A DNA stretch of 64,000 bases from positions 56,360-120,359 of the forward strand of contig JBGSRK010000009.1 in assembly GCA_041737595.1 (NCBI GenBank), written 5' to 3'. A program made the position numbers and the translations under genes. Position 1 is the stretch's first letter. Every line of letters begins with the position of its first letter. The notes below the pieces were generated by a model. That model had not been told where the DNA came from. It was given only the letters and a program-made list of their open reading frames with translations, and searched no databases. Source of the DNA: Patescibacteria group bacterium (GTDB lineage: Bacteria; Patescibacteriota; CPR2; UBA1875). Positions 29,301 through 60,716 of the stretch are shown one piece after another.

Positions 29301-29393
29301 TCGACAAAATCTGTCGATTTTGTCGAAAAAGAAGGAATCGCAAAAGGATGAAGACGTTTAATAGCGTCTGAATTCAAAAGCAGATTCCGACGC
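29301..29393 (+). repeat. tRNA-abutting palindrome plus hairpin element (arm 1)
   Basis: TCGACAAAATC-TGTC-GATTTTGTCGA, then GGAATC...GATTCC-GACGC directly before tRNA-Met. Confidence 0.8.
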
Positions 29394-29470
29394 GGCAGGG
29401 TAGCTCAGCTGGTTAGAGCACAGGACTCATAAGCCTGAGGTCGTGGGTTCGAGTCCCACCCCTGCTACCA
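29394..29470 (+). tRNA. tRNA-Met(CAT), probably elongator (Ile2 not excluded)
   Basis: GGCAGGG/CCCTGCT acceptor stem, loop CTCATAA, encoded CCA. Confidence 0.88.
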
Positions 29471-29573
29471 ACGGACTCGAAGGGTGTGAGTAGGAAACGA
29501 ATGCATGGAGTTTTCTGTGTGTAGCACCCAGGCTCTTTAGTCGGAGCGAAGAGGAGTCCCACCCCTGCTACCA
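29451..29573 (+). repeat. 20-nt direct repeat of tRNA-Met 3' end enclosing an 83-nt structured insert
   Basis: GAGTCCCACCCCTGCTACCA at 29451-29470 and 29554-29573. Confidence 0.9.
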
Positions 29574-29636
29574 TAAAAATATCTACATTATTTACATATA
29601 GAACTATAATAAAGTAAGTTAACGTTTAGGACACCT

Positions 29637-30929
29637 ATGGGGAATAAACCTTTTTTAGATTTAAATAAAAATATTTTAGTAAAAAACGACAAATTAATTG
29701 TTGCTGTTTCTGGTGGCGTTGATTCTGTTGTACTTTTGGATTTAATTACAAAAAATACTAATTCTAAAAATATAATAATCGTGCATATTAATCATGGTTT
29801 AAGAAAAGAATCCCTTGATGAAGCTATTTTTGTTGAAAAGTTAGCAAAAAAATATGGCATACAATATGAAACATCTAAATTAAATTTAAAAAATCCGACA
29901 GAAGAAAATTTAAGAAATTCACGCTATAAGTTTTTAAGAAAAATTAAAGAAAAATATAATGCAAAATACGTCGTAACCGCTCATCATCTTAATGATCAGG
30001 CCGAAACAGTTCTTTTATATTTAACTCGTGGGACTGGACCAACACAAATCTGGGGCATGAAAGAAATTGAAAATGATATTTGGCGCCCATTACTCTCATT
30101 TTCTAAAAAAGAAATTATTGCTTATGCCAAAGATAATAAATTAAAACACATAACTGATAAATCAAATTTAGATTCTAAATATTCTAGAAATCGAATTCGT
30201 AACAAAATTATCCCCGAGATTAATAAAATAAATGAAAATTTTTTAACTACGATTCAAAAAGAAATTATACTTGGGCAAGAATTGGAATATTTTATTAAGG
30301 AAGAGACAAAAAAAGCATTAAAAAATATCGCTAGTGGCAATACAATAGACCTTAAAAAGTTTAAAAAACTTAATATTTTTATCAAAAAAAGCATTCTTTT
30401 TGAAATGTTAAAAACTCATACTCCAAAAAAAGAAGGTATTTATCAAAAAAACGTTAATGAAATATTAAAAATCGCCGATTCTTCCGGAAATAAAATGTCA
30501 AAAATTGGAGGATTTACGGTGAGCAAAAATTATGATAAAATCATCTTTGATTTCAAGAGAAAAAAGTCACAAAAAAAGACACATTTAGTTTTAGGAGGGA
30601 ATAACTACAATAATTGGTCACTTATTCTTAGTAAAGAGAAGAATAAAAAGCCCACAAAAAACAATGTTTTACTCCCAATAAAATACGAAAATGAGCTTTT
30701 TGTTAGAAGTTGGAAAACTGGTGACAAAATAAGTACAAATATTGGGACAAAAAAGATTCAAGATATTTTTACTGACGCAAAAATTGATACGGAAAGTAGA
30801 AAAAACTGGCCAATAATTGTTTTTAGAAATAAAATTATTTGGGTCCCGAAACTTCAGGCAAGCATTTATGCGTTAAAAAAATCAAATGATAATAATTTAA
30901 TAATTGAGGTGAAAAATGAAAAAAGATAG
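29637..30929 (+). CDS. tilS: tRNA(Ile)-lysidine synthetase
   Basis: AVSGGVDS, HINHGLR, TAHHLNDQAET, RNRIR; upstream of ftsH. Confidence 0.95.
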   Translation: MGNKPFLDLNKNILVKNDKLIVAVSGGVDSVVLLDLITKNTNSKNIIIVHINHGLRKESLDEAIFVEKLAKKYGIQYETSKLNLKNPTEENLRNSRYKFLRKIKEKYNAKYVVTAHHLNDQAETVLLYLTRGTGPTQIWGMKEIENDIWRPLLSFSKKEIIAYAKDNKLKHITDKSNLDSKYSRNRIRNKIIPEINKINENFLTTIQKEIILGQELEYFIKEETKKALKNIASGNTIDLKKFKKLNIFIKKSILFEMLKTHTPKKEGIYQKNVNEILKIADSSGNKMSKIGGFTVSKNYDKIIFDFKRKKSQKKTHLVLGGNNYNNWSLILSKEKNKKPTKNNVLLPIKYENELFVRSWKTGDKISTNIGTKKIQDIFTDAKIDTESRKNWPIIVFRNKIIWVPKLQASIYALKKSNDNNLIIEVKNEKR

Positions 30930-41739: not shown

Positions 41740-41918
41740 TAAAAGCGTATAAGTCAGCTAGTCACTGATGAGCATTGGGAAGAAATCGAAAGAAAGTAGA
41801 CCCCAACGGGTAAGCCCGTAATAGCAGGAATGAAGAGCCCTCGCGCCTGCCTGTCGCAGACAGGGAATTGGGGTGGTACCTCCGCCGACAAGCGGACCCC
41901 AAGTGCAGGGATTTTTTT
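41740..41918 (+). promoter_or_regulatory. T-box leader of valS
   Basis: T-box AATTGGGGTGGTACCTCCG, candidate Val specifier GTA in GAAAGTAGA, T run before the AGGAG RBS. Confidence 0.8.
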
Positions 41919-41929
41919 ATAGGAGAAAA

Positions 41930-44095
41930 ATGAAAGAACTACCAAAACATTTTGATTTTTTAGATCAAACAAAAATATATAAACTATGGGAAGATGGGGG
42001 ATATTTTAAACCAGTAAAAAAAGCTGGCGTTAAGCCTTTTTCTATCATTATGCCGCCGCCAAATGCAAATGGTTTTCTGCATATTGGCCATGCTGTTTTT
42101 GTTACACTTGAAGATATAACTATTAGATATCACAGAATGAAAGGGGAACCAACTCTTTGGCTTCCGGGGGCAGATCATGCAGGGATTCAAACACAGGTTG
42201 TTTATGAAAAAGAGCTTTTAAAACAAGGTAAAACTCGCTTTGATTTAGGTAGAGACGAATTTTATAAACAAACATATGATTTCACAATGGGAAATAAGAA
42301 AATTATGGAAAACCAACTTCGAGAACTTGGAGCGAGTTGTGATTGGTCTCGAGAACACTTTACTTTAGAACCAGATATTTCAAAATCAGTTTATTATACT
42401 TTTAAAAAAATGTATGACGATGGCTTAATCTATCGAGGAGAAAGAATAATTAATTGGTGTCCAAGATGTGGGACAGCTTTATCTGATATTGAGGTTATAC
42501 ATAAAGAAAAAGAAGGGAAACTAACATATATAAAATATCCGATAGAGAATAGTAATGACTTTATAACTGTTGCAACAACAAGACCAGAAACAATGCTCGG
42601 AGACACCGCCGTTGCTGTAAACCCAGGTGATAAAAGATATAAAAAATATATTGGTCTTAATCTAATTTTGCCTTTATCAAGCCGTAAAATACCAATAATA
42701 TCTGATGAGGCAGTAGATATTACTTTTGGAACTGGAGCAGTTAAAATTACACCAGCGCACGACCCATTAGATTTTGAAATATCAGAAAGACATAATTTAG
42801 ATGTTATTGAAATTATTAGTAAAGATTTAAAAATGACAAAAGAAGCAGGTAGTAAATACAGTGGCCTAAAATATAATGTAGCCAGAGAAAAAGTTATTGA
42901 AAATCTTAAAAAATTAAATTTGGTTGAGAAACAAGATAACTTTATTCATTCAGTTGGAACGTGTGAAAGATGTAAATCAACTATTGAGCCATTAATATCA
43001 AAGCAATGGTTTGTAAAGATAAAACCTTTAGCTGAAAAAGCAATTAAGTCAGTAAAATCAGGTGAAATTAAATTTACTCCAAAAAGATATGAAAAAGTTT
43101 ATTTTAATTGGATGGAAAATATTCGTGATTGGTGTATTTCAAGACAAATATGGTGGGGGCATAGAATCCCGGTATATTATTGCCAAGACTGTGGCGAGAT
43201 TATAGTAGAGGTGGAGGCTCCGAATAAATGTAAATGTGGAAGCAAAAACATAATGCAAGATCCTGATACTCTTGATACTTGGTTTTCGTCAGGGCAGTGG
43301 CCTTTTAACACTTTAGGATGGGATAAGGAAGTATCAAAGGGCAAAAAATCAAAAAATGGTGATTTTGAATACTTTTATCCAACTTCAGTAATGGAAACTG
43401 GAATGGATATTTTATTTTTCTGGGTTGCAAGAATGATTATGCTTGGGATATATTGCACCGGTAAACCTCCGTTTACTGAGGTAGTTCTACACGGTCTTGT
43501 TAGAGATAATGATCGTCAAAAGATGTCAAAATCAAAGGGTAATTCGGTTGATCCCCTTGGAATTGTTGAAATATATGGGACAGATGCTATAAGAATGGCA
43601 CTTGTTTTTGGAACAGGTATTGGGAATGATATTGTTATTTCAGAGGATAAAATTAAAGGATTTCGTAATTTCAGTACAAAAATATGGAATGCTTCTAGAT
43701 ATATACTTATGAATTTAGATGGATATAAAAATGTTCCACGTGGAACATTAGAAAAGATGTTTACTAAAGAGGATCTGTGGATAATTAAAGAATTTGAAAA
43801 AACTACTGAAAAAATAACAAATTCACTTGAAAAACATAATTTTCATCATGCTGCCGAAGAAATATATGAATTTTTCTGGCATAAATTTTGTGACAAAACA
43901 ATTGAAGATACAAAAAAACGCATATATGAGGGTTCAGATAAGGAAAAAATGGTTGCAAAATGGGTATTATTTAATGTTTTATCTGGATCATTAAAGTTAT
44001 TACATCCATTTATGCCTTTTGTAACAGAAGCAATTTGGCAGAATCTAAATAATAAAACACCTTTAATTGTATCTGAATGGCCTAAAAAGCTATAA
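41930..44095 (+). CDS. valS: valine--tRNA ligase lacking the C-terminal coiled coil
   Basis: PPPNANG.LHIGH, DHAGI, ATTRPET, DWCISRQ, KMSKS; ends at SEWPKKL. Confidence 0.96.
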   Translation: MKELPKHFDFLDQTKIYKLWEDGGYFKPVKKAGVKPFSIIMPPPNANGFLHIGHAVFVTLEDITIRYHRMKGEPTLWLPGADHAGIQTQVVYEKELLKQGKTRFDLGRDEFYKQTYDFTMGNKKIMENQLRELGASCDWSREHFTLEPDISKSVYYTFKKMYDDGLIYRGERIINWCPRCGTALSDIEVIHKEKEGKLTYIKYPIENSNDFITVATTRPETMLGDTAVAVNPGDKRYKKYIGLNLILPLSSRKIPIISDEAVDITFGTGAVKITPAHDPLDFEISERHNLDVIEIISKDLKMTKEAGSKYSGLKYNVAREKVIENLKKLNLVEKQDNFIHSVGTCERCKSTIEPLISKQWFVKIKPLAEKAIKSVKSGEIKFTPKRYEKVYFNWMENIRDWCISRQIWWGHRIPVYYCQDCGEIIVEVEAPNKCKCGSKNIMQDPDTLDTWFSSGQWPFNTLGWDKEVSKGKKSKNGDFEYFYPTSVMETGMDILFFWVARMIMLGIYCTGKPPFTEVVLHGLVRDNDRQKMSKSKGNSVDPLGIVEIYGTDAIRMALVFGTGIGNDIVISEDKIKGFRNFSTKIWNASRYILMNLDGYKNVPRGTLEKMFTKEDLWIIKEFEKTTEKITNSLEKHNFHHAAEEIYEFFWHKFCDKTIEDTKKRIYEGSDKEKMVAKWVLFNVLSGSLKLLHPFMPFVTEAIWQNLNNKTPLIVSEWPKKL
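43732..43747. promoter_or_regulatory. parS site 1 (inside valS)
   Basis: TGTTCCACGTGGAACA, a perfect 16-bp ParB-type palindrome. Confidence 0.85.
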
Positions 44096-44112
44096 TTATA
44101 TATAGAAATAGA

Positions 44113-44128
44113 TGTTCCACGTGGAACA
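44113..44128. promoter_or_regulatory. parS site 2
   Basis: TGTTCCACGTGGAACA within a 36-bp palindrome at 44103-44138. Confidence 0.88.
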
Positions 44129-44162
44129 TCTATTTCTAATGCTTGAAACATTTATATGAATA

Positions 44163-45047
44163 ATGCAATATAGATATATGAGAAAAAATATATATATATA
44201 TTTTCTAATAGTATTTTTATTTATATTTAACGGTTATTCTATATATTTATCTACAAGATATTTAAATATAAAAAGAATTAATTATTCTAAAGAATTATTA
44301 ACCAAATCAGAAAAAAGTGATAATAAGCTCATATACTTAATTGAATCTGATATATTAACCCCAAAGGATGATAAAAAACTAGAAATAGCTAATATATATC
44401 TTAAATCTGGAGATTTTAGTCTTGCTAATATGTATTTAAAGCTAATAAAGGACCCTTCGGGTATAGTTAAATATGCTGAATCAGCTTTAGAGGAGGGTAA
44501 TTATACAGTTTTTAATAATTTATATCAAAAAATTAATAATGAAGCAGTGAAAAATGAATTAATTTTTTTTGAAAAATTTACTAAAGGAGAGTATGAAGTA
44601 ATAAATAGTATTAACGATGAACCTGTTACAGGTCTAGGTAAAGTATTATTAGCCATAAATAAAAGAGATTATTCAGAAATTGATGATAATGGGGCTATAG
44701 TCGAGATTATTAATAGTCAAATAAATGATAATATAATATTCACCGAGTTAAATATTTCAAAATCATTAATAGAAATGTCTCAAATAAATATCGCAAAATA
44801 TTTACTTAATAGAATCAATAGTGAAAGACCTGAAATATCGGTTACATATTTACTCCAATCTAAAATTTTTGAAAAAGAAAACAATTATAATAAAGCAATA
44901 GATTATATTAAAATCGCAATTTCAAAGGATCCATCTAATATTTCTTACTACGAAGAGGGGATTATACTTTCAGAAAAAACAAAAAACAATATAGATTTAA
45001 GTTTCTTTAAAAATCGTTTAGATAGTTTAAATTCTTCAATAAAATAA
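44163..45047 (+). CDS. membrane-anchored TPR-like protein
   Basis: N-terminal TM helix; TPR-like NYNKAIDYIKIAISKDPSN. Confidence 0.6.
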   Translation: MQYRYMRKNIYIYFLIVFLFIFNGYSIYLSTRYLNIKRINYSKELLTKSEKSDNKLIYLIESDILTPKDDKKLEIANIYLKSGDFSLANMYLKLIKDPSGIVKYAESALEEGNYTVFNNLYQKINNEAVKNELIFFEKFTKGEYEVINSINDEPVTGLGKVLLAINKRDYSEIDDNGAIVEIINSQINDNIIFTELNISKSLIEMSQINIAKYLLNRINSERPEISVTYLLQSKIFEKENNYNKAIDYIKIAISKDPSNISYYEEGIILSEKTKNNIDLSFFKNRLDSLNSSIK

Positions 45048-45049
45048 TA

Positions 45050-45228: not shown

Positions 45229-45418
45229 ACGTCAGAATAAACTGACAGCTTTCACAAATTAGCATTTGTTTCAATTTCTCGTTATTTTTCCTCAGCGATG
45301 AAAATCGACAAATTTTCATCGGTTCCAACCAAATCTGTCGATTTTGTCGGAAGAGGAGGAATTGCGATAGGATGAAGACGTGATAACCACGTCGGAATCC
45401 GTAAGCGAATTCTGACGT
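45229..45418. repeat. two tRNA-abutting elements back to back filling the Arg-Ser spacer (arm 5 inverted, arm 2 forward)
   Basis: Spacer begins ACGTCAGAAT and ends ATTCTGACGT; two AAATC-(GACA/TGTC)-RATTTT palindromes in the middle. Confidence 0.8.
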
Positions 45419-45510
45419 GGTGGGATGCCAGAGTCCGGTTGAATGGGCCGCACTCGAAATGCGGTATAGTCGCAAGATTATCGGGGGTTCGAATCCCTCT
45501 CCCACCGCCA
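45419..45510 (+). tRNA. tRNA-Ser(CGA)
   Basis: GGTGGGA/TCCCACC, CCGCA-CTCGAAA-TGCGG, long variable arm, G73. Confidence 0.96.
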
Positions 45511-45664
45511 TAATTAGACAATTTTGCCTTTAGGCGAAAGTGTCGAATTAATTACGAAGGAAATGGGATGAGAACGGGTTTGCCCCGACGGCAAACCCCG
45601 GCCCGAAGCCCAGCGACATTGGAGCTGGGTTGCAAAGCAAGGTCGAATCCCTCTCCCACCGCCA
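45489..45664 (+). repeat. 22-nt direct repeat of tRNA-Ser 3' end enclosing a 132-nt structured insert
   Basis: TCGAATCCCTCTCCCACCGCCA at 45489-45510 and 45643-45664. Confidence 0.9.
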
Positions 45665-45698
45665 GAGATAAGATTATAATTATTTTTATAAGGAAAAA

Positions 45699-46241
45699 AT
45701 GTCAGTAAAGATAACATATTTTGTACATGGCACCACAATTGATAATGAAAGCCATATATCCTCTGGTTGGAAAGATATTAATCTTTCTGAGCTCGGGGTT
45801 AACCAGTCAAAAGAACTTCCCTTTTTAAATACAGACCAGTTTGACGTTGTATTCTGTTCTGATCTAACTCGTGCAATTCACTCAGCAAAACTTTCATTTA
45901 AAAACAAGTTCCCAATAATTGTTGATAAGAGGCTACGTGAGTGTAATTATGGAGATTACGACGGAAAACCGTCAGAAATTGTAGAACCCTTGCAAGAAAA
46001 AATGGTACAAGAAAGATTTCCTAACGGTGAGTCTTATGAAGATGTTAAATTCAGGATAGAATCCTTTTTAAAAGATATTGAAAAAAATTATAATGGTAAA
46101 CAAATTGCAATTGTTGCTCATAAAGCTCCACAAATCGTTTTAGATGTTCTATTAAAAAATATGACTTGGGATGAGGCATTTGCCAATGATTGGCGTAAAG
46201 TCGGGAAGTGGCAACCAGGTTGGGAATATTTACTAAAATAG
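45699..46241 (+). CDS. histidine phosphatase family protein
   Basis: VHGTT (RHG variant), SDLTRA, LRECNYG, FPNGES, VAH. Confidence 0.88.
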   Translation: MSVKITYFVHGTTIDNESHISSGWKDINLSELGVNQSKELPFLNTDQFDVVFCSDLTRAIHSAKLSFKNKFPIIVDKRLRECNYGDYDGKPSEIVEPLQEKMVQERFPNGESYEDVKFRIESFLKDIEKNYNGKQIAIVAHKAPQIVLDVLLKNMTWDEAFANDWRKVGKWQPGWEYLLK

Positions 46242-46281
46242 AAGTATATACACGATAAAGGCAATTAAATTGATTTAAGCT

Positions 46282-46551
46282 ATGAATAATATTAAAATAC
46301 TAATGGAGGAGTATATTTTAAAAATAAAACCATATCTATGGGCAACACTTTGGTCACTATTAGTCTCTTTCCTTTTAGGGACTGGTTGGTATATTTTATT
46401 TACATATAGTTCAGATATAACAGTTTATAATTTGTTAATTGATATTTTTTCAGGATTAAATTTTTGGCTTAACGTCGGCATTTTTACTGTCTTATATTCG
46501 ATATTCATTACTTATCCAGTAGTATTTTTTAGAAAAAAGAAAGTAAATTAA
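46282..46551 (+). CDS. small 2-TM membrane protein
   Basis: Two hydrophobic segments and a basic tail. Confidence 0.6.
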   Translation: MNNIKILMEEYILKIKPYLWATLWSLLVSFLLGTGWYILFTYSSDITVYNLLIDIFSGLNFWLNVGIFTVLYSIFITYPVVFFRKKKVN

Positions 46552-47060
46552 TGGCAAAAATTTTAATAATTATACCTCATGATCGTTTTCGAGATGAAGA
46601 ACTTGATGCATTAATTAAAGAAATAGATTCTTCTGAACATACATACGAGATTGGTTCTTCTCACCATACAGAAGCTAAGGGTCAATATGGGATGATTATA
46701 AAACCAGACGTTGATATTAAATATGTTGAACCAAACGACTATGACTGTTTAGTTTTACTTGGAGGAGCTGGTACACAAGAGTTTATATTGGATTCATTAA
46801 TTACTAATTTGATTGCTAAATTTTATTATGATAGAAAAATAATTGCAGGAATTGGTATGGCAGTAGGTTTACTCGCCTATGCAGGCATACTTACTCAGAA
46901 AAGAGTAACCTGTGATCCTTTAACTTCTTCAAAAGTAACTGATGCCGGAGCTTTTTTTACTGGAGCGGGAACCGAATGGGATGGTGATATTTTAACTGGA
47001 AGCGGGTACAGAGCCTCAGAAGAATTTGCAAAAGAACTTATAAAAGGTTTAAAATCATAA
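46551..47060 (+). CDS. DJ-1/PfpI family protein
   Basis: FRDEE, YDCLVLLGGAG, DGDILTG; nucleophile elbow reads AGIG. Confidence 0.85.
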   Translation: MAKILIIIPHDRFRDEELDALIKEIDSSEHTYEIGSSHHTEAKGQYGMIIKPDVDIKYVEPNDYDCLVLLGGAGTQEFILDSLITNLIAKFYYDRKIIAGIGMAVGLLAYAGILTQKRVTCDPLTSSKVTDAGAFFTGAGTEWDGDILTGSGYRASEEFAKELIKGLKS

Positions 47061-47077
47061 AGCTAAGTTAGGATATT

Positions 47078-47974
47078 ATGCCGGAATTGCCTGAAGTAGA
47101 AACCATAAAGAGGGATCTAGAAGATGTTTTGATTAATAAAAAAATCAAAGACGTAGTTTTTATGTGGCCTGGAATTCTCAAAGGTGTTGAACCTGAAATA
47201 TTCTTAAAATATGTTAAAAATATAGAAATATTATCAGTTCAGAGAAGAGCAAAAAATATCAGTATTAAGCTTTCAAATGACTGGAACCTTCTTTTTCATA
47301 TGAAAATGACAGGACATTTAATTTATACTGATAAATCATGGAAAGTTGATAAAAATGGAAAATGGATAGCCCACAATAAAAAAAATAGCCCACTTTTTGA
47401 TCCACTGAATCAATTCATAAGAGTAATATTCTATTTATCTAATAATAAAATATTAGCTTTTTCAGATCTTCGTAAATTTGCATACGTAAAATTACTTAAT
47501 TCGGAAGAATTAACAGATGCTTTTAAAAATTACGGTCCAGAACCATTTTCAAATAGTTTTAATCTTGAATATTTAACTAAGTTATTTTCGAAAAAAAATG
47601 TTTCAATAAAAAAAGTTATTTTGGATCAAAAAAATATCGCAGGTATTGGTAATATTTATGCTGACGAAATATTGTGGGAATCTAAAATACATCCGCTAAG
47701 GGCAGCATCGAGTTTAACAAAGAATGAAATTAAATTATTTTATAAATCTACAAAAAGCATATTGACCAGAGCAATTGAAAAAAGAGGTACATCAACTTCT
47801 GATTTTAGAGATATATCTGGTAAAAAGGGCTCATTTAGTGAATCACTAAGGGTCTATCGACAAACAGATAAGCCCTGCGAAAGAGATGGTAATTTGATAC
47901 AAAGAATTTCAGTAGGTGGAAGGGGTACTCACTTTTGTTCAAAATGTCAGAAATTAGAGGCTATAAATGATTAA
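47078..47974 (+). CDS. mutM: formamidopyrimidine-DNA glycosylase
   Basis: MPELPEVE, HMKMTG, DLRKF, AGIGNIYADE, C-terminal zinc finger. Confidence 0.97.
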   Translation: MPELPEVETIKRDLEDVLINKKIKDVVFMWPGILKGVEPEIFLKYVKNIEILSVQRRAKNISIKLSNDWNLLFHMKMTGHLIYTDKSWKVDKNGKWIAHNKKNSPLFDPLNQFIRVIFYLSNNKILAFSDLRKFAYVKLLNSEELTDAFKNYGPEPFSNSFNLEYLTKLFSKKNVSIKKVILDQKNIAGIGNIYADEILWESKIHPLRAASSLTKNEIKLFYKSTKSILTRAIEKRGTSTSDFRDISGKKGSFSESLRVYRQTDKPCERDGNLIQRISVGGRGTHFCSKCQKLEAIND

Positions 47975-48884
47975 AATATTTTATGGTGATGATAGTTTTT
48001 CTATTTCAAAAGAGTTAGAAAGACTTTATCTCGCCAACCAAAAAGATAATGGTGAAATAATTAATATAGATAAAAGTATTGAGACAAGCATTTCATCTAT
48101 GATTCTTTCTGTCTCTTTTTTTAATAATAAAAGATTATTTATTATTAAGGATTATTTATATGAAATACCCGATAGTGATATTAAAAGTATTATTGATAAC
48201 TTTTCTGAAATATCAAATATAACAGATATAATTTTTATTGAAAAAACAATTTCAAAAAAATCTAAACTTATTGATTTTATAAAGAAAAACGGAGAGATTA
48301 AACCTTTTGAATTAAAAGGTTATTCAGATCCAAAAAGTTTTATTAAAAAAAGATTTCTAGACGAAGGGGTAGATATTGCTCCTCTCGCAGTGGAAAGATT
48401 AGCAAGTTTTGTGGGTAATGATTTTTGGCAACTTTCAGAAGAAATAAATAAATTAATCCTATATAAAAAAGGTGAAGAGATTGACCCTTGTATCGATAGT
48501 ACAGATGTAGATCTTTTAGTCAAATCTAATTTTGAAGCGAATATTTTTGAACTTTTGGATAATATTTCTGCTAAAAATATAAAAAAATCTACTGAGCTTA
48601 TAAATAGTTTTTTAGAATCTGGAGAAAATGCTATTTATATCCTAACCATGATAGAAAAACAATTCAGAAATATCGCTATGGCAAAATTTGAAAATGGGAT
48701 CAGTGATTTTAATCTTGCAAAAAAAGCAGGAATTCACCCCTATGTTGCTAAAAAATCAATATCACAAGCAAGATCATATTCAAAAGAGGATATATTAAAT
48801 ATTTATAAAAAATTAATTTGGGCTGATTTAAAACTAAAAAGTGGGTTTGAACCAAACCAAATTCTCTTAAGAATTATTAATTAA
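47967..48884 (+). CDS. holA: DNA polymerase III delta subunit
   Basis: FYGDD, EINKLILY, NIFEL, HPYV, DLKLKSG. Confidence 0.85.
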   Translation: MIKIFYGDDSFSISKELERLYLANQKDNGEIINIDKSIETSISSMILSVSFFNNKRLFIIKDYLYEIPDSDIKSIIDNFSEISNITDIIFIEKTISKKSKLIDFIKKNGEIKPFELKGYSDPKSFIKKRFLDEGVDIAPLAVERLASFVGNDFWQLSEEINKLILYKKGEEIDPCIDSTDVDLLVKSNFEANIFELLDNISAKNIKKSTELINSFLESGENAIYILTMIEKQFRNIAMAKFENGISDFNLAKKAGIHPYVAKKSISQARSYSKEDILNIYKKLIWADLKLKSGFEPNQILLRIIN

Positions 48885-48917
48885 TGATATCTCTATAGGT
48901 ATGTTAAAATATTTTAT

Positions 48918-50810
48918 ATGACAAAAATAATCGATTTTTTAGATAAAATAAAAAATAAAAAAAATTGGGTCCTTTTCATAAAAAGTAATTATCTGTATAT
49001 ATTTTTTGTTATTAGTTTCACTATAAAGCAAATATTTTTTACAAGAGAAATTAATGGATATTTTTTACCTTTTCCTGAAATATTATTAAATATATTATTT
49101 TATTTTGTTTTAGCAGCCTTACTTTTTATCCCGGTAATTTTTTCTAAACGCAAATTGATTGTTTCGATTATTTTAGCTATTTTGTTTACAACAATTATAA
49201 TTTTTGATTTAACATACTTTCATTTTTTTCATTCTTTACCTTCTGTAGCTATCTTTAGTTTAATCGGGAATGTTGATGATGTTGGGCCAGCTGTTATAAA
49301 TGTTTTTAACTTATACGATTTAATCTATCTAATAGATATATTTATCGCGATATTATTATTTAAAAAAATAAAAAGTGAATTTAAGGTCGAAAAAAGACAT
49401 CTTTTATATGGTTCTGTTTTTTTTATGTTTATAATACTTTCGAATATTTTATTTTTTGGGCTAGACCACGCTTTTGTAGAAAGAACTATTACAAGAATTT
49501 ATGATAATCGGCTAGTTGCAGAAAGATATGGGTTTTTTGGATCTCACATATTTGATATTTATCGTAATGTTTCACAATCATTAAAAAAAATCTCACCCGA
49601 AGAAAAAACAGATGTTTTAGAATGGATAAATAATAATAGAAAAACAGAAGAAATTAACGATTTCACAGGAATTGCAAAAGGTAAGAATGTTATAGTAATC
49701 CAAGTAGAATCTTTGCAAAATTTTGTTATTGGAGAAAAGGCAGATGGGCAAGAAATAACTCCAAGTCTTAATAAACTACTTAAAGATAGTTATTATTTTG
49801 AAAATTATTTTTTCCAAATGGGAGCTGGGCATACATCTGATGTAGATTTTACTATAAATACTTCATATTACCCCTTAAAAGAGGCTGCGGTAACAGTAAG
49901 TTATGGAAAAGATAATTTTTCAGCTCTTCCAAAAGATTTAAAAGAAAATAATTATTCATCATATGCCTATCATGGTTATAATCGTAATTTTTGGAACAGA
50001 GATACATTTTTCCGATCTATGGGCTATGATAAATATATTGCGCGTGAGGGCTATCCAGATGGACCAATAGTAAATATGGGCTTAAATGATGAAACCTTTC
50101 TAAGAAAAACTGCCGAATATATAAAAGAACAGCCAAAACCTTCATTCAGCTATGTTATTACTCTTTCAAATCATAATCCTTTCCACTTGGAAAATGTCGA
50201 AAAAAGTATAAATCTTGATTCTTCTAAATACCCAGAAATGGTATACGGTTATCTAGAAAATGTAAATTATTCAGATCGCACCCTTGGAATATTTTTTGAA
50301 CTTCTAAAAAAAGAGGGTCTTTATGACGATTCATTAATTGTGCTCTATGGTGATCATATGTCAAAAATTGAACCATTTGAAGTTGATAACTTAAAATATG
50401 ATAGAGATTCGGCCCCAAAATATAAAGGAGTTCCATTATTTATTAAATTACCTATGCAAAATGAAGGAAAGATTATTAAAAGTGTTTCAAGCCACATTGA
50501 TATAAAGCCCACAATATTGAATTTACTTGGGATTAAAACTAAAAGCTTTATGTTTGGTTCTGATTTATTCTCAAACGTTAAAAAATTCTTCGGTTCTGTT
50601 TCATACTATGACGATAAGACAATTGTTACAGATGATAAAATTTATAGATATACTAACCCAGATTTATTAATATGCAAAGAGTGGTCCAAAGGAGATATAT
50701 CTCAAAAAGATGAGGATTGCCAAGATATAATAGAAAGAGATAAAATAGAACAAGAAATTTCAGAAAAAATTATTAGATATAATCTTTTTGATGAGGTTAA
50801 CACTAAATAA
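48918..50810 (+). CDS. LTA synthase (LtaS) family protein
   Basis: Five TM helices, KGKNVIVIQVES, GHTSD, FWNR, TLSNHNPF, YGDH. Confidence 0.9.
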   Translation: MTKIIDFLDKIKNKKNWVLFIKSNYLYIFFVISFTIKQIFFTREINGYFLPFPEILLNILFYFVLAALLFIPVIFSKRKLIVSIILAILFTTIIIFDLTYFHFFHSLPSVAIFSLIGNVDDVGPAVINVFNLYDLIYLIDIFIAILLFKKIKSEFKVEKRHLLYGSVFFMFIILSNILFFGLDHAFVERTITRIYDNRLVAERYGFFGSHIFDIYRNVSQSLKKISPEEKTDVLEWINNNRKTEEINDFTGIAKGKNVIVIQVESLQNFVIGEKADGQEITPSLNKLLKDSYYFENYFFQMGAGHTSDVDFTINTSYYPLKEAAVTVSYGKDNFSALPKDLKENNYSSYAYHGYNRNFWNRDTFFRSMGYDKYIAREGYPDGPIVNMGLNDETFLRKTAEYIKEQPKPSFSYVITLSNHNPFHLENVEKSINLDSSKYPEMVYGYLENVNYSDRTLGIFFELLKKEGLYDDSLIVLYGDHMSKIEPFEVDNLKYDRDSAPKYKGVPLFIKLPMQNEGKIIKSVSSHIDIKPTILNLLGIKTKSFMFGSDLFSNVKKFFGSVSYYDDKTIVTDDKIYRYTNPDLLICKEWSKGDISQKDEDCQDIIERDKIEQEISEKIIRYNLFDEVNTK

Positions 50811-50880
50811 ACTATTTGCACAATAACTTAATTAACTTTATTATATATATAGAAACATAATTGGTTAGGAGGGATATTTA

Positions 50881-51909
50881 ATGGCCATAAAAGAAAAATC
50901 TGTTTTAGATGAAACAGATAAAGAAGAAGTAAAATCAGAAGATAAAAAAGAGTTAAAAACAAAAAAAGGAAAAAAGAAGTTTAAATTTACTCCGCTTACA
51001 TTAATTGTTATTGGGGTTTTAGTTTTAATAGGACTCGCAAACATCACTTATGGAGTAATGGTTTATAGTTATAATAACGAGAGTGCCATAATTAAAACCG
51101 CTTCAAGAGTCTTATTGTTCCCATCAGAAATTATTGAAGGTAAATATGTAACTGTGCATTCATATTTAAATCAGCTTGATATTCTAAAAAAATATTATGT
51201 TGAGTTTAAGAAAGTAGATTTTGCATCAGAAGATGGACAAAAAAAATTAGCAGAAATTAGAGTAGAGGTCCTTGATCGAATGGCAGAAGATGCAATTGTA
51301 GAAAAAGAAGCAGAAAGTCAACAGATTAAAATTGATTCAAACGATCTTAATGAAGAATATGACAAATTAATTGCCTCAAATGGAGGTCAGAAAAACTTTT
51401 CAGAAATACTAAAAAAATATTATGGTTTAACAATAGATGATTACAAAAAAGTATTTTTTGAACCAAAATTACTTCGTCAAAAATTAACTGATAAAATAAA
51501 TAGTGAAGAAGAAGAAACAGGAGTTGCAAAAAAGAAAGCTGAAGATCTTCTTACAAAAGCAAAAGCTGGTGAAGACTTCGCAAAACTAGCAACAGAATAT
51601 TCAGGTGACCCAGGTAGTGCAGCAAAAGGTGGTGATCTTGGTTATTTTGGAAAAGGTAAAATGGTACCTGAATTCGAAAAGGCTGCCTTTGATGCAAAAG
51701 TAGGAGATATCGTAGGCCCAGTAAAATCAGTTTATGGTTATCATATAATCAAAATTACTGACAAAAAAGGTGATGAAGTTAAAGCAAGCCATATTCTAAT
51801 TAAAACTCGTGATTTTAATGAATGGCTTTTAGAGAAAAAATCAGAAATTAAGCAAAAAAAATATCTTGGATTCTTCCCGGCCTACTGGATACTAATAAAA
51901 ACAGATTAA
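50881..51909 (+). CDS. PrsA/SurA-like parvulin peptidyl-prolyl isomerase
   Basis: DFAKLATEYSGDPGS..GGDLG, MVPEFEKAAF, YGYHII. Confidence 0.9.
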   Translation: MAIKEKSVLDETDKEEVKSEDKKELKTKKGKKKFKFTPLTLIVIGVLVLIGLANITYGVMVYSYNNESAIIKTASRVLLFPSEIIEGKYVTVHSYLNQLDILKKYYVEFKKVDFASEDGQKKLAEIRVEVLDRMAEDAIVEKEAESQQIKIDSNDLNEEYDKLIASNGGQKNFSEILKKYYGLTIDDYKKVFFEPKLLRQKLTDKINSEEEETGVAKKKAEDLLTKAKAGEDFAKLATEYSGDPGSAAKGGDLGYFGKGKMVPEFEKAAFDAKVGDIVGPVKSVYGYHIIKITDKKGDEVKASHILIKTRDFNEWLLEKKSEIKQKKYLGFFPAYWILIKTD

Positions 51910-51911
51910 CT

Positions 51912-51939
51912 AAAAAGCCCGCAAATAAGCGGGCTTTTT
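51912..51939. terminator. bidirectional intrinsic terminator
   Basis: AAAAGCCCGC-AAATAA-GCGGGCTTTTT. Confidence 0.75.
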
Positions 51940-51976
51940 CAAATTCGAATTATTTGTTAAAATAATCTCGTTATGC

Positions 51977-52050
51977 GCGGGTATAGTTTAGTGGTAAAAC
52001 GCGACCTTCCCAAGGTTGAGATACGGGTTCGATTCCCGTTACCCGCTCCA
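51977..52050 (+). tRNA. tRNA-Gly(CCC)
   Basis: GCGGGTA/TACCCGC, CGACC-TTCCCAA-GGTTG, TCCA end. Confidence 0.96.
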
Positions 52051-52222
52051 TCGTCCAAACAAACTATCACACTACGCAACTTAAAAAATTGGCTCCGCGT
52101 TTTCGTTGTTTCTCCTTGGCAAACAAAATCGACAGATTTTGTTTGGGATTAGAAGGAGGAATCGCGAAAAGATAAAGACGGCCTACATCGGCTCATCTAA
52201 ATCTAGAAACGAATTCCGTCGG
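52051..52222. repeat. two tRNA-abutting arms (arm 6 inverted, arm 3 forward) sharing one central palindrome
   Basis: CAAACAAAATC-GACA-GATTTTGTTTG at 52120-52145; spacer starts TCGTC and ends TTCC-GTCGG. Confidence 0.75.
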
Positions 52223-52388
52223 GCCGATGTAGCTCAGGGGCTCAATTGTTGCAGTCCCACACTTATGCCAGTGTAACTCAGTGGTAGAGTAACTCTTTCG
52301 TAAAGAGTAAGTCGTGGGTTCGATCCCCACCGCTGGCTCCAGATAAGTGTGGGATTGGTCGGTGGTTCGAATCCACCCATCGGCTCCA
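52223..52388 (+). ncRNA. tRNA-shaped shell with acceptor stem, T arm and CCA but no anticodon loop, enclosing tRNA-Thr
   Basis: GCCGATG-TAGCTCAG...GGTC-GGTGG-TTCGAAT-CCACC-CATCGGC-TCCA; 15-bp stem 52252-52266/52343-52357. Confidence 0.8.
52267..52341 (+). tRNA. tRNA-Thr(CGT), nested
   Basis: GCCAGTG/CGCTGGC, ACTC/GAGT D stem, ACTCT-TTCGTAA-AGAGT, GTGGG-TTCGATC-CCCAC, TCCA. Confidence 0.95.
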
Positions 52389-52459
52389 TATTTAGCAGAA
52401 TTCATAAATACAGTTGATATTTAGGCTCAAATCTGCTAAAATAGGCCCAGAGGTAATAA

Positions 52460-52729
52460 ATGGCATTAAAAAAAGAAGACAAAGAAAAAGTAATTAAAGA
52501 TTTAAAAACTGGGAAAAATGATACAGGTTCTCCAGAAGTTCAGGTTGGAATTTTTACGGAACAAATCAAAAAACTTACTGATCACCTTAAAGGTCATAAA
52601 AAAGACGAACATTCTCGTCGTGGTCTTCTTAAAATGGTTGGTAAAAGAAGAAGGCTCCTAGATTATTTACGCCATAAAGATGAAAATAGATATGACACTA
52701 TTATTAAAAAATTAGGTTTAAGAAAATAA
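52460..52729 (+). CDS. rpsO: 30S ribosomal protein S15
   Basis: [31 protein letters not shown]. Confidence 0.99.
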
Positions 52730-52757
52730 TGGGTCTTTAAAAAATAATTATTAAAAC

Positions 52758-52805
52758 TTGGGAGACAGAGCAGGAAGTGGTCAAACTTCTCACCCTGTCC
52801 CTCAA
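52758..52805 (+). promoter_or_regulatory. long stem-loop in the pnp leader (possible RNase III/autoregulation site)
   Basis: TTGGGAGACAG..GAAGT-GGTCAA-ACTTC..CTGTCCCTCAA; position matches known rpsO-pnp leader hairpins. Confidence 0.5.
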
Positions 52806-52837
52806 AGCGGGATATGACCTCTTTCGGAAAGGTATTT

Positions 52838-54931
52838 ATGAATACTAAATTAGGCGAATTATCTGTTTCTCAAGAGATAGATGGAAAGACTTTTTGTATA
52901 GAAACTGGAAAATTGGCTAAGAATGCCTCTGGTTCAGCTGTTATTACTCATGGCGAGACTATTGTCATGGCCAATGTTGTTGCATCAAGTAAACAAGATG
53001 AAACAAGAGATTATTTCCCACTCTCAGTAGATTTTGAAGATAAATGGTATGCCACAGGGAGATTATCTGGTTCACGTTTCATAAAAAGAGAAGGTAGACC
53101 TTCAGAACTTGCTGTATTACGTTCAAGAATGATTGATCGGCCGATAAGACCAATGTTCCCAAAAGGTTATATGAATGAACTACAAATAATCGTTTCACCT
53201 CTTTCACTCGATTTAGAAACTGACCCAGTTGTCATGGGAATTAATGCCGCATCTGCTGCACTTATGATGAGCGGAGCTCCATTTGAAGGGCCATTAGGAG
53301 CCGTGAGAATGATAAAAATTGATGGAAAAGTAAAATCAAACCCTACATACAAAGAAATGGAAGAAGCCGAAGCAGATCTTCTTATTGTTGGGACAAAAGA
53401 TGCCATTACAATGATTGAAACAGAAGCAAAAGAACTTCCAGAAGAAGAATTTGTTGCAATGTTAGATGAGGCACACAAGATAATTAAAGAAAATATTACT
53501 CTTCAGGAAAAATTACTCGAACAAGTTAAGGTTAAAAAAGTTGAATTCAAACTTTCAAAACCAGATGATGGAGCTTATGACGCTATCAAGTTATTTTTAA
53601 AGAGCAAATTAGGAGCCGCAATACGTCATGAAAGTAAAATGGCGCGTCAAGATCTTATTGCAACACTTGAGGATGAAGTAAGTGAAAAATTTGCTGAAGA
53701 ATTTGAAGCTAAAGATATACGAGAATCGTTTGATAAAGTAATTAAAGAAGACATCCGAAATTCTATCTTAGTAGAAGGCGTTAGACCAGATCATCGTAAA
53801 ATGGATGAAATTCGACCTTTATCAGCTGATGTCTCACTTCTTCCAAGAACACATGGTTCTGCCCTATTTAACAGAGGACTTACTCAAATATTATCCATAA
53901 CAACTCTAGCTTCACCTTCAAAGGCGCAATTAGTTGATTCAATGGATCAAGAATTTACAAAAACATTTATGCATCATTATAACGATTCCCCTTTCGCATA
54001 TGGCGAAGTTGGCCGTCTTGGGCCAGGGCGAAGAGCTATTGGTCATGGATTTTTAGCAGAAAAGGCAATCCTACCAGTTATGCCAAGCCATGATGATTTC
54101 CCATACACAATTCGTGTTGTTTCAGAAGCTCTCTCAGAAAATGGGTCTTCTTCAATGGGTTCAATCTGTGGAACATCGATGTCTTTAATGGATGCAGGTG
54201 TACCACTTAAAAAACATGTTGCTGGTATTGCTATGGGTGTAATAACTGAAGACGGGACTCTAAATAAAAAATATGAGATTCTAACTGATATTCAAGCAGC
54301 AGAAGATTTTGCTGGCGATATGGACTTTAAATGTGCAGGGACAGACCTTGGGATAACCGCTCTTCAATTAGATATGAAGATAAAGGGGATTACTCCGAAT
54401 TTCATCGGCGAAGTCTTAGAACGAGCAAAAAAAGCACGTTTAACTATTTTAGATCTAATGAATAAAACAATCTCAGAGCCTAACAAAGAGATGTCAAAAT
54501 ATGCTCCAAGACTAACAAGTATTAAAATTAATACTGAAAAAATTAGAACCGTTATTGGTAAAGGCGGAGAGATGATAAATAAAATTATCGCAGAAACTGG
54601 TGCAGAAATTGACATAGATGACGACGGAACTGTGGTTGTTGCTTCTGTCGATAGTGAAGGGGCTAAAAGAGCCATAGAATGGATTAAAGGGCTTACAGAT
54701 GACCCAGAAGTAGGTAGGGTTTATGACGGAAAAGTTGTGAAATTAATGGACTTTGGAGCGTTTGTTGAATTTATGCCAGGCCAAGAAGGTCTTGTTCATG
54801 TATCACAAATAGCCGACGAAAGAGTCGAAACGGTATCTGATTTTCTTAAAGAAGGACAGGAAGTAAAAGTAAAATTAATGGAAATAGATTCGCAGGGCAG
54901 AAAAAACCTTTCTATTAAAGCTGCAAAATAA
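52838..54931 (+). CDS. pnp: polyribonucleotide nucleotidyltransferase
   Basis: FIKREGRPS, RTHGSALF, NGSSSM, GDMDFK, KH and S1 domains; ATG 52838 after GAAAGGT. Confidence 0.98.
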   Translation: MNTKLGELSVSQEIDGKTFCIETGKLAKNASGSAVITHGETIVMANVVASSKQDETRDYFPLSVDFEDKWYATGRLSGSRFIKREGRPSELAVLRSRMIDRPIRPMFPKGYMNELQIIVSPLSLDLETDPVVMGINAASAALMMSGAPFEGPLGAVRMIKIDGKVKSNPTYKEMEEAEADLLIVGTKDAITMIETEAKELPEEEFVAMLDEAHKIIKENITLQEKLLEQVKVKKVEFKLSKPDDGAYDAIKLFLKSKLGAAIRHESKMARQDLIATLEDEVSEKFAEEFEAKDIRESFDKVIKEDIRNSILVEGVRPDHRKMDEIRPLSADVSLLPRTHGSALFNRGLTQILSITTLASPSKAQLVDSMDQEFTKTFMHHYNDSPFAYGEVGRLGPGRRAIGHGFLAEKAILPVMPSHDDFPYTIRVVSEALSENGSSSMGSICGTSMSLMDAGVPLKKHVAGIAMGVITEDGTLNKKYEILTDIQAAEDFAGDMDFKCAGTDLGITALQLDMKIKGITPNFIGEVLERAKKARLTILDLMNKTISEPNKEMSKYAPRLTSIKINTEKIRTVIGKGGEMINKIIAETGAEIDIDDDGTVVVASVDSEGAKRAIEWIKGLTDDPEVGRVYDGKVVKLMDFGAFVEFMPGQEGLVHVSQIADERVETVSDFLKEGQEVKVKLMEIDSQGRKNLSIKAAK

Positions 54932-55831: not shown

Positions 55832-56313
55832 AGATAGCTATTATTTCAGACGTCCATGACAATATTGAAAGATTTTCAGAAATTGTTGAAACGGTAAAAA
55901 TTGAGAAAATATCTAATTGTATCTGTTGTGGAGACATAACTTCAATCAACACTTTAGATATTATTTCTAACACATTTAAAAAAATATTTTTAGCTTTTGG
56001 AAATGCAGATTATGATATTAAGATGAAAATTGAACTCATCCCAGAAAATATTAAATGGGACGAAAATTTATTAGAATTTGAAATTGATAAATTAAAATGT
56101 GCCACAATCCATAATACTTGGACAGCGAAAAAAATTGCTGAAAGTGAAAAATACGATTTCATATTTTCGGGTCATTCACATACTCCGTGGGCTGAAAAAA
56201 TTGGAAAAACTACTATTATTAACCCAGGTGAGGTATGTGGCCGGGAAGGCAAACCATCATTTGCGATATTTGATACTAAAACTAAAAAAGCAAAACTAAT
56301 ACTATTAAAATAA
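55828..56313 (+). CDS. YfcE-like metallophosphoesterase
   Basis: ISDVHDN, CGD, GNAD, GHSH, NPG. Confidence 0.9.
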   Translation: MKIAIISDVHDNIERFSEIVETVKIEKISNCICCGDITSINTLDIISNTFKKIFLAFGNADYDIKMKIELIPENIKWDENLLEFEIDKLKCATIHNTWTAKKIAESEKYDFIFSGHSHTPWAEKIGKTTIINPGEVCGREGKPSFAIFDTKTKKAKLILLK

Positions 56314-58485: not shown

Positions 58486-58486
58486 A

Positions 58487-59203: not shown

Positions 59204-59718
59204 TATTAACTGGAAAAGAAATAATAAAAGAGGTTATAAATGGCAAAATACATATTAAGCCATTTGCGCTTAATAATATAAATCCAAATAGTTATAATTT
59301 TAGTTTAGGGAATAAGTTAAAAATATATAAAAAAAAGATACTCGATCCTAAAGTTGAAAATGAGTTTATAGAAATTGTAATTCCGAAAGAAGGGTACGTA
59401 TTAAAACCTAATCAATTATATTTAGGTCATACTATAGAAGAAATGGGTTCTGATTATTATGCCCCAACTATGCAAGCGAGAAGTTCGATTGGAAGGTTGG
59501 GTTTATATATTTATCTTAATTCTGGTTTAGGTGACATTGGCTTCAAAAAACAATGGACGCTTGAGCTTCATGCGATTCATCATCTTCGGGTTTATCCAGG
59601 AATGAAAGTTGGGCAGATGCTTTTTTGGAAACCTCAAGGTGAGATATTTTTATATGATGGTAAATATAAGAACTCTATTGGACCCGAAACAAGTCAGATT
59701 TGGAAAGATTTTAGTTAA
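59194..59718 (+). CDS. dcd: dCTP deaminase (trimeric dUTPase fold)
   Basis: INPNSY, ARSSIGRLG, GDIGF..WTLE, YDGKY. Confidence 0.9.
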   Translation: MDMILTGKEIIKEVINGKIHIKPFALNNINPNSYNFSLGNKLKIYKKKILDPKVENEFIEIVIPKEGYVLKPNQLYLGHTIEEMGSDYYAPTMQARSSIGRLGLYIYLNSGLGDIGFKKQWTLELHAIHHLRVYPGMKVGQMLFWKPQGEIFLYDGKYKNSIGPETSQIWKDFS

Positions 59719-59795
59719 ATAGTGGCCTGTGTTACAATATTTTTACCAGAGTTCTAGTATATTAAATCCCCTCCCCTTAATTTGGAGTTTATAAA

Positions 59796-60575
59796 ATGAA
59801 AGATTATAAAGACATATCAGGACTAGATATTAAACTTGAAGACATCGGGCTAACCTATGATCAAGCTGTTTTTGGTGTTGAACCAAAAACAAGAAATTAT
59901 GAGGAAGCAAAAGATGTATATTTAGAAAAGGGAGCCGAAGAGCAAGAACTTTACTGGATGTACAGATATATGGAAAAGTCCGTGGATACTGATGTTTTTG
60001 AACTAAATAAAGCCGAATATGATATTACGGTAATTAAGCCAGGTAAAATAGGGCCTGAATTTATAAAAACATCTGGGCATTATCACGGCTATGTTCCAAA
60101 TACTGAAATGACTTATCCAGAGGTTTATGAAGTAATTGATGGGAATATTAACTATCTTTTGCAAACAAAGCCAGATATGGAAGGAAATGTTGATGTAGTT
60201 ATCGTAGAAGCAAGTATTGGAGATAAAATTATTGTTCCTCCGAATTATGGTCATGTTTCAATAAATATAGGTGAAAATTATGCAGTATCTTCAAATCTTC
60301 AGTTTCGCGATCTTCCAGCCACTGCAGACTATGAATCATTTAAAGTGAATAATGGGGCTGCTCTTTATCGAACAGATAATGGTTGGGATAATAATTTAAA
60401 TTATAAAATCAGATCTTTAAAAAAAGTCACTCCAAAAGAAAAACCTGAGTGGGGACTTACAAAATTAAAACCATTATATAGTTCCTTTATTGAAAGTCCG
60501 GAAAAATTTAAATTTATTATAGAACCACAAAACTTTAATTTTTCAGATATTTGGGAAGAAAAAAAGGATTTTTAA
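59796..60575 (+). CDS. cupin-type glucose-6-phosphate isomerase
   Basis: YDITVI.PG, KTSGHYH, YPEVYEV, VPPNYGHVSIN. Confidence 0.88.
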   Translation: MKDYKDISGLDIKLEDIGLTYDQAVFGVEPKTRNYEEAKDVYLEKGAEEQELYWMYRYMEKSVDTDVFELNKAEYDITVIKPGKIGPEFIKTSGHYHGYVPNTEMTYPEVYEVIDGNINYLLQTKPDMEGNVDVVIVEASIGDKIIVPPNYGHVSINIGENYAVSSNLQFRDLPATADYESFKVNNGAALYRTDNGWDNNLNYKIRSLKKVTPKEKPEWGLTKLKPLYSSFIESPEKFKFIIEPQNFNFSDIWEEKKDF

Positions 60576-60620
60576 CCTTCGCAAAGCCAAGAATAGATAG
60601 TATAATGTTTTAGCACTTAA

Positions 60621-60716
60621 TAATCGAAATCTATAGATTTCGATTAAGAGGAAGCGTAGCGAAAGAGCATAGAAATTTTTAAAAAGATTTTGAAGCTCGT
60701 CAGCTTACGCTGACGA
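60621..60716 (+). repeat. divergent tRNA-abutting element (arm 4)
   Basis: TAATCGAAATC-TATA-GATTTCGATTA, AGAGGA, AGCGTA...TACGCT-GACGA directly before tRNA-Ser. Confidence 0.65.

Follow-up and report, generated by a model that had tools for sequence, protein, structure and literature searches.

A number of the tRNA genes of a Patescibacteria group bacterium were found to be flanked by a repeated module of about 95 nt, referred to here as the arm, which abuts the ends of the genes in both orientations. Six arms lie within the window, that is, the whole 64,000-nt stretch of DNA analysed (contig C67 of genome G000, a 1.09-Mb assembly with 38.5% G+C that is 97% complete and encodes 44 tRNAs and one tmRNA). 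With a probability that we put at roughly 55%, the arms represent a new lineage-specific family of structured RNA modules flanking the substrates of RNase P. The most plausible reading of forward arms, which end at the 5' base of a gene, is that each forms the entire structured leader of a tRNA or tmRNA precursor, up to the RNase P site. Inverted arms, which carry the same motif on the opposite strand with its tail against the CCA end, are true members of the family; they are as constrained as the forward arms, dock at CCA and lie inside operons.

Eight tRNAs were identified in the window, with ARAGORN and Rfam in agreement. A preliminary description made from the letters of the window had placed six arms at tRNA ends in both orientations, and all six were recovered within 1 nt of their first placement. 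The arms, the neighbouring tRNAs (each found by both programs) and two promoter-like boxes are given below, with scores in bits for a covariance model (CM) of the family and z-scores for folding of the arm on its own.

29281..29286, + strand: -10-like box TATATT, 14 nt before the hairpin of the Met arm; putative promoter by consensus
29301..29393, + strand: forward arm, putative whole leader of tRNA-Met(CAT); 90.1 bits; the lone fold gives the shared layout, z -7.07
29394-29470: tRNA-Met(CAT)
45153-45228: tRNA-Arg(GCG)
45229..45321, - strand: inverted arm, tail touching the CCA end of tRNA-Arg(GCG) with a gap of 0; 81.8 bits, minus strand only; weak lone fold, z -1.93
45325..45418, + strand: forward arm ending at the 5' base of tRNA-Ser(CGA); 87.9 bits; z -3.05
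45419-45510: tRNA-Ser(CGA)
51977-52050: tRNA-Gly(CCC)
52051..52145, - strand: inverted arm, tail touching the CCA end of tRNA-Gly(CCC) with a gap of 0; 82.4 bits
52120..52222, + strand: forward arm comprising rod and tail, adjoining the 5' fragment of a disrupted tRNA, the shell, around tRNA-Thr(CGT); 44.9 bits; z -3.94; outside the training set of the model
52267-52341: tRNA-Thr(CGT)
60601..60606, + strand: -10-like box TATAAT, 14 nt before the hairpin of the Ser(GGA) arm; putative promoter by consensus
60621..60716, + strand: forward arm, putative whole leader of tRNA-Ser(GGA); 93.9 bits; z -6.33
60717-60808: tRNA-Ser(GGA)

The arms at 45229-45321 (-) and 45325-45418 (+) stand head-to-head with 3 nt between them. 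Every item of the layout first proposed, namely a palindrome, an AGGA linker, stem P1, a bulge step, a 4x4 loop, stem P2, a 3x3 loop, stem P3 and a GACGN tail, was seen; the palindrome, an 11-bp hairpin with AAAUC/GAUUU at its top and a UGUC-type loop that was attributed initially to all six arms, is present in five, and the shell arm (52120-52222) has no hairpin of its own and uses that of the inverted arm at 52051-52145. Lone folding of the two inverted arms of the window is weak (z -1.9 and -1.1), and it is from a comparison with 33 inverted arms of other genomes that their fold is deduced.

The consensus, derived from 101 copies, consists of a hairpin, a linker, a three-stem rod and a tail. 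The hairpin comprises 11 bp, with six covarying pairs followed by AAAUY/RAUUU and a UGUN-type loop, and leads through the linker AARAGGA to P1, a stem of 6 bp followed by a single bulged base and a G-C/C-G step. A 4x4 loop (GAAA/GNCA) separates this step from P2, which has 4 bp and is followed by a 3x3 loop (GNA/GNA) and by P3, whose tip is variable; the arm finishes with the tail GACGN. Judging from the conserved columns, the GGA of the linker and the GAC of the tail could close the rod through G.A, A.G and G-C pairs, such that the structure would extend to tRNA position -2; RNAalifold supports just one G-C pair of this closure. In an alignment of 18 arms from G000 (A1; MAFFT, with the structure taken from RNAalifold), 95.0% of paired cells were complementary compared to 70.4% after shuffling, and none of 500 shuffles reached the observed value; shifting the partners by one to three columns lowered it to 32-49%. 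Compensatory changes were detected by RNAalifold in 23 of the 28 pairs of these arms. The early impression that the stems vary while their pairing is kept was thus borne out, and the covariation is strong. The unpaired purines of the three loops, the linker and the top of the hairpin are 90-100% conserved. Two of the G000 arms are 98% identical to each other.

None of the families described in Rfam accounts for the arms, a comparison that had also been proposed at the outset. Only tRNA was matched at the gathering score of Rfam 15 in the window and in nine arm-bearing loci, and nothing meaningful was obtained for the arms at E <= 10 (45000-45600) or E <= 1 (29380-29640). Likewise, full-text literature searches, and searches for terms within PMC11109978 and a bioRxiv preprint of 2026, gave no description of the element, supplementary files aside.

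The association with tRNA ends extends throughout the genome. When the flanks of all G000 tRNAs were inspected (130 nt on the 5' side and 110 nt on the 3' side), the layout was seen ahead of 15 tRNA-type genes, tmRNA among them, and its inverted form after five to seven tRNAs. A covariance model (R1) was then built and run against G000, where it returned 19 matches at E <= 1.4e-5, all of them at the ends of tRNAs, tmRNA or the shell; tRNA ends likewise hold weaker matches, which follow tRNA-Phe, precede tRNA-Ile and adjoin tRNA-Trp. The tmRNA gene has a forward arm in both G000 and its relative G006. Between tRNA-Leu(GAG) and tRNA-Phe of G000 (C120:11630-11701), a 72-nt spacer starts with TCTTCAGG and finishes with CCTGACAT; it looks like a minimal remnant that retains just both arm tails.

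Among 61 relatives (G000 counted), 18 genomes gave matches to the model, copies being present in 17 of the 32 genomes of the class and numbering 1 to 26 per arm-bearing genome. Public contigs validated by the model are labelled Candidatus Saccharibacteria, Saccharimonadales or Patescibacteria; a pattern scan of the genome collection gave mostly chance matches. A re-search of the fetched match regions, with positions set against ARAGORN genes, yielded 101 matches, of which 20 belong to G000 and 81 to relatives, and none of the latter was in the training set. In relatives, the distance to the end of a tRNA or tmRNA gene is -1 to +5 nt for 72 of the 81 copies (39 forward and 33 inverted). The 52 forward arms (13 from G000) are separated from their genes by 0 nt in 46 cases, +1 in three, +3 in two and -1 in one; all 52 thus end within -1 to +3 nt of the +1 position of a tRNA or tmRNA. 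For the 39 inverted arms (six from G000), the gap is -1 in 26, 0 in 12 and +5 in one. The other ten matches, one in G000 and nine in relatives, lie away from intact gene ends and include arms followed by a 5' tRNA fragment, an insert and an intact tRNA, tandem arms, one partial match and the shell of the window. Arms occupy orthologous sites across genera, where the copies differ in their stems. The nearest neighbour of a forward arm is also forward for 46 of 52, and that of an inverted arm also inverted for 31 of 39, which indicates that the two orientations form partly separate subtypes. Head-to-head pairs are spaced by 2-5 nt in 11 of 16 cases, the order of the Phe and Val genes varies between genomes, and in G006 an array reads Val-I-Phe-I-Gly-I-Cys-I-Leu, where I denotes an inverted arm.

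That the forward arms serve as leaders is suggested by the sequences on either side of them. With a -10 box defined as a match of at least 5/6 that includes A2 and T6 and lies no more than 45 nt upstream, a hand tally identified one ahead of 27 of 36 single forward arms (an exact TATAAT in 11) and of 5 of 23 single inverted arms (exact in one); for the members of pairs, the values were 2/16 (forward) and 1/16 (inverted). The distance from the end of the box to the hairpin is 10-36 nt for single forward arms, such that the hairpin would lie at the 5' end of the primary transcript; because a TATAAT-like box usually precedes them, forward arms are taken to span the entire 5' leader as far as the RNase P site. 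The gene classes that bear them are RNase P substrates only. Their stems favour G-U over A-C (46:22, p = 0.005). RNase P RNA is encoded in G000, with matches to RF00010 at 219.7 bits (C36:5609-6028) and 261 bits (C90:1248-1648). The second of these, which belongs to a contig of 2 kb, may be foreign; together with a high-G+C tRNA-Sec observed on contig C30, it suggests that the bin, with a stated contamination of 3.5%, holds some foreign contigs. A role of the arm as a guide for its own tRNA was considered and rejected, the duplex energies with cognate and non-cognate tRNAs being equal (p = 0.3-0.9), and an AUG, as a leader peptide would have, was seen by eye in one arm subtype only.

The inverted arms match the model on the strand opposite to the tRNA, with scores like those of forward arms. 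Aligned by themselves (A3, 38 sequences), they yielded this fold again, 25 of its 27 pairs being compensated. The strand-specific loops ascribed to them from the window were confirmed: the unpaired purines of the motif strand are as conserved as in forward arms (A65, 100% in both classes; A177, 97% in inverted and 100% in forward arms), and folding favours the motif strand over its complement in 36 of 39 inverted and 49 of 52 forward arms. A co-directional tRNA is located 17-351 nt downstream of 34 of the 39; of the remaining five, two precede clear co-directional open reading frames (ORFs), one precedes a forward arm and a farther tRNA-Trp, and two are unassigned. Of the operon-internal tRNAs of G000, 5 of 16 are followed by an inverted arm, compared with 1 of 28 among the other tRNAs (Fisher p = 0.018), and for the sole non-operon case the next tRNA is 345 nt downstream. 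The alternative offered by the preliminary description, an unrecognised tRNA-processing signal, fits the forward arms, with -10 boxes before them and the RNase P site at their end; the inverted arms do not share the leader feature. Pairing of a released forward leader, as antisense, with the transcript of an inverted arm was tried and rejected, the best identity within the same genome averaging only 0.61-0.75. A promoter-like site was observed on the minus strand at 45312-45341, where TCGACA (the complement of the forward hairpin loop) is followed after 18 nt by GAAAAT (the 5' stem of the inverted hairpin). Reciprocal promoters in head-to-head hairpins, with TCGACA as -35 and nAAAAT as -10 elements, were rejected as a general feature, for the window pair fits the pattern and just 6 of 32 directions do over the 16 pairs.

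Taken together, the arms are proposed to act in maturation as follows. Transcription would begin a few nt before the 11-bp hairpin, as the -10 boxes suggest, and the forward arm would make up all of the leader 5' to the tRNA or tmRNA in its precursor. This leader would fold into the hairpin and the rod, with its three G/A-flanked loops and the linker/tail closure reaching position -2, and a cut by RNase P after GACGN, consistent with the position of the arm and the presence of RNase P RNA, would free the tRNA. The self-contained fold may insulate the tRNA from its flanks and shield the new 5' end. Given that a stable structure adjoins the cleavage site, the arm would presumably also govern how fast and in which order RNase P cuts, as simple flanking stem-loops do in Escherichia coli polycistrons; in PMC10731613, a stable stem-loop near the site is described to slow bacterial RNase P approximately 10-fold, and stem-loops flanking tRNAs to impose a 3'-to-5' order of processing. 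No known behaviour comes closer to the one proposed. An inverted arm would be the same module on the other strand at the CCA end, in a spacer that is nearly always transcribed into a downstream tRNA or gene, and it may work through its complement within the operon transcript, through a rare antisense RNA or as folded DNA.

A number of observations weigh against this proposal. The start sites, the RNase P cut and the effect on processing are themselves inferred. Two genomes of the same family, G001 and G004, are armless, with tRNAs only 5-16 nt apart, and thus the arms are dispensable (a third, G003, is armless too). The nearest relative of an arm is found at the same tRNA in just 3 of 101 cases, which implies turnover or homogenisation by gene conversion and would equally fit a selfish element. 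At one locus of G020 (L167, C2:79510-79601), an arm that has a -10-like box before it stands some 40 nt ahead of an ORF for a membrane protein, and no tRNA is detectable after it. Inverted arms mostly lack promoters, and their stems show no clear strand bias (G-U:A-C of 26:18, p = 0.29). Around those of the window (41873-54931), every ORF of at least 80 aa without a larger overlapping ORF is on the plus strand, and the four minus-strand ORFs listed are short, each overlapping a longer plus-strand ORF or a tRNA; there is consequently no convergent gene to transcribe the motif strand. Finally, a role in insulation or rate-setting does not explain the conserved motif-strand purines of the inverted arms.

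Other explanations were weighed as well. Unpaired purines conserved at 90-100% exceed the needs of a passive spacer, and this, together with stems that are variable and lack complementarity to the cognate tRNA and a fold with z down to -7, would suit a released leader of about 95 nt that functions in trans as a protein-bound small RNA, the tRNA gene lending it a strong promoter and a precise 3' end. We regard this as unlikely, given that the candidate partners L7Ae (PF01248), Nop (PF01798) and TROVE (Ro60) had no match in G000 and that inverted arms mostly have no promoter. The lack of promoters at inverted arms would suit an action of the arm as folded DNA, a cruciform or hairpin at both ends of tRNA genes that serves as a topological buffer or as the site of a structure-specific protein. 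The strand carrying the purine loops would then be irrelevant and only a rod-proximal orientation would count; indeed, the rod is proximal to the tRNA and the hairpin distal in both orientations, and inverted stems are almost purely Watson-Crick, without strand bias. Yet the stems of forward arms favour G-U over A-C, these arms appear clearly to lie within transcripts, extrusion is poor for imperfect rods that contain 3x3 and 4x4 loops, and neither a precedent nor a candidate protein was found; we consider folded DNA quite improbable as the explanation.

The view favoured by the preliminary description, a single-stranded DNA (ssDNA) hairpin moved by an HUH/RAYT transposase or a recombinase that targets tRNA boundaries, in the manner of REP/BIME elements or attC sites, draws on the BIME-like spacing of the head-to-head pairs, on copy numbers of 0 to 26 among relatives, on nearest relatives at other tRNAs, on the differing Phe/Val order and on two Y1_Tnp-like ORFs in G000. 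It was not supported by the search for partner proteins, and we assign it very little probability. Y1_Tnp had no match in eight genomes with 4-26 arms each (G002, G006, G010, G016, G018, G020, G022 and G024) but was present in many arm-free relatives, with up to eight matches. The tyrosine recombinase family PF00589 gave one match per arm-rich genome and in nearly every arm-free relative, and no dedicated integron integrase was found, IntI-specific models not having been run. Reverse transcriptase (RVT_1) and small GIY-YIG genes do not track the arms either; GIY-YIG homing genes were rejected as mobilisers since G020, with 13 arms (12 in a stricter-filter search), has one match, in a 494-aa frame, and the arm-free G007 has 13. 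Moreover, orthologous sites are occupied across genera and no strong G000 copy lies off tRNA-type ends. Empty arm sites, the remaining check, were not seen in metagenome contigs of two DNA runs, which are uninformative on absence. We do not read the arms as the end or footprint of a transposon. A further account, for the inverted arms, is RNA-templated copying: the 3' end of a mature tRNA would prime on a leader released by RNase P, and the chimera would recombine into the gene, the copy decaying slowly or being co-opted. Both sides of the junction are indeed RNA-processing ends, the CCA-3' of the tRNA and the GACGN-3' of the leader, and they overlap by 0 nt in 12 of 39 cases and by 1 nt in 26, the terminal A lying opposite U at leader position -1. 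Against such copying, RVT_1 had no match in seven arm-rich genomes (G002, G006, G010, G016, G018, G020 and G022), conservation is equal in inverted and forward arms, the inverted ones form subtypes of their own that span genera, and an unexplained second crossover is required, all of which makes it very unlikely. A broader and likewise quite doubtful conjecture is that an unknown factor reads the module on either strand and that the module marks both mature ends of the tRNA gene to the nucleotide, the inverted copies being made, or having been made, from released leaders via the 3'-OH of the mature tRNA. If true, it would mean a route, defined by RNA ends and with its enzyme unknown, by which structured RNA is written back into a bacterial genome beside tRNA genes.

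Other features were observed at tRNA ends. A second repeat, of approximately 80-100 nt, begins right after the CCA of tRNA-Met in the window (29471-29575) and occurs also after tRNA-Tyr, Gln(TTG), Gln(CTG), Leu(CAA), Ser(TGA) and Thr(CGT, C19) of G000; it ends in a copy of the last ~20 nt of its tRNA, from mid T-loop to CCA. It had no Rfam match at E <= 1, and its lone fold was no better than that of shuffled sequences (z -0.27). In the nested tRNA at 52223-52407, the intact tRNA-Thr(CGT) at 52267-52341, flanked by an 11-bp inverted repeat, lies between the 5' piece of a tRNA and a 3' piece that comprises the variable loop, T arm, acceptor and CCA. In a contig of DNA run X2, positions 52240 and 52355 are linked through 23 different letters, and the contig reads as the uninterrupted tRNA in a related population. 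At four loci of relatives, L148 (G006:C2:1-1400), L152 (G006:C6:9500-11100), L175 (G022:C11) and L024 (G024:C8), an arm precedes the initial 12-21 nt of a tRNA (to the D arm), after which come an insert and the intact same tRNA; the insert in L148 and L152 is a small GIY-YIG ORF. The tRNA genes thus look like targets of GIY-YIG-linked insertions that carry a replacement tRNA. Small GIY-YIG ORFs in G000 (C21 ~9337-9580 and C108 ~55999-56241) end directly before the armless tRNA-Gln(CTG) and tRNA-Glu(TTC), respectively.

Bacterial pre-tRNA leaders are usually regarded as short and unconserved. On the reading of the arms as RNA modules flanking RNase P substrates, a lineage of ultra-small bacteria devotes approximately 2 kb of a 1-Mb genome to a conserved two-domain tRNA/tmRNA leader and keeps mirror copies at tRNA 3' ends. 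The arms would thus provide a well-supported new RNA family in a phylum with almost no RNA biology, together with a natural system for the control of RNase P by flanking structure, and the inverted copies raise the question of what reads an RNA-like fold on an untranscribed strand.

Membership in REP/RAYT, attC, retroelements, kink-turn or box C/D RNAs, TIGR and Y RNAs was rejected because in each case a defining feature is lacking. REP/BIME elements with RAYT are likewise repeated imperfect palindromes with compensatory changes that occur in both orientations and as head-to-head pairs in operons. REPs are approximately 35 nt long and are scattered after many genes, alongside a RAYT gene, whereas the arms are ~95 nt, are tied to tRNA-type ends and occur in arm-rich genomes without Y1_Tnp. 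With integron attC sites, the arms share a structure more conserved than its sequence, a strand-specific fold, internal unpaired bases and a variable terminal loop, and arrays of gene plus site resemble the one in G006; however, the arm consensus has no GTTRRRY core, an integron-type integrase was not found, and the forward arms plainly read as leaders. Tandem G.A pairs beside helices recall kink-turn and box C/D RNAs and the TIGR guide RNAs, PMC12045711 describing Nop-domain systems with stem-loop arrays in CPR bacteria. In contrast to these, the arms have no 3-nt bulge, their symmetric 3x3 and 4x4 loops are too small for spacers, they do not form tandem arrays, and G000 lacks L7Ae and Nop. 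With respect to Y RNA/YrlA, TROVE is absent from G000, and the only YrlA match was sub-threshold and covered the tRNA itself. Like the leader-trailer helices of rRNA and boxB/boxA leaders, the arms are conserved structured flanks that would be removed as a stable RNA matures; unlike the former, they fold by themselves, and a tail-to-tail helix closing leader on trailer, rejected as a general feature, was predicted in just 6 of 16 paired spacers. The structured flanks of pre-tRNAs in E. coli polycistrons, as described in PMC10731613, are likewise cis RNA structures by the RNase P site of tRNA and tmRNA precursors, found in first-gene leaders and in spacers between tRNAs. Those flanks are idiosyncratic short hairpins in leaders of 2-52 nt, whereas the arm is conserved over its ~95 nt, has two domains and invariant purines, is present in 4-26 copies per genome, fills the whole leader and recurs, inverted, at the CCA end.

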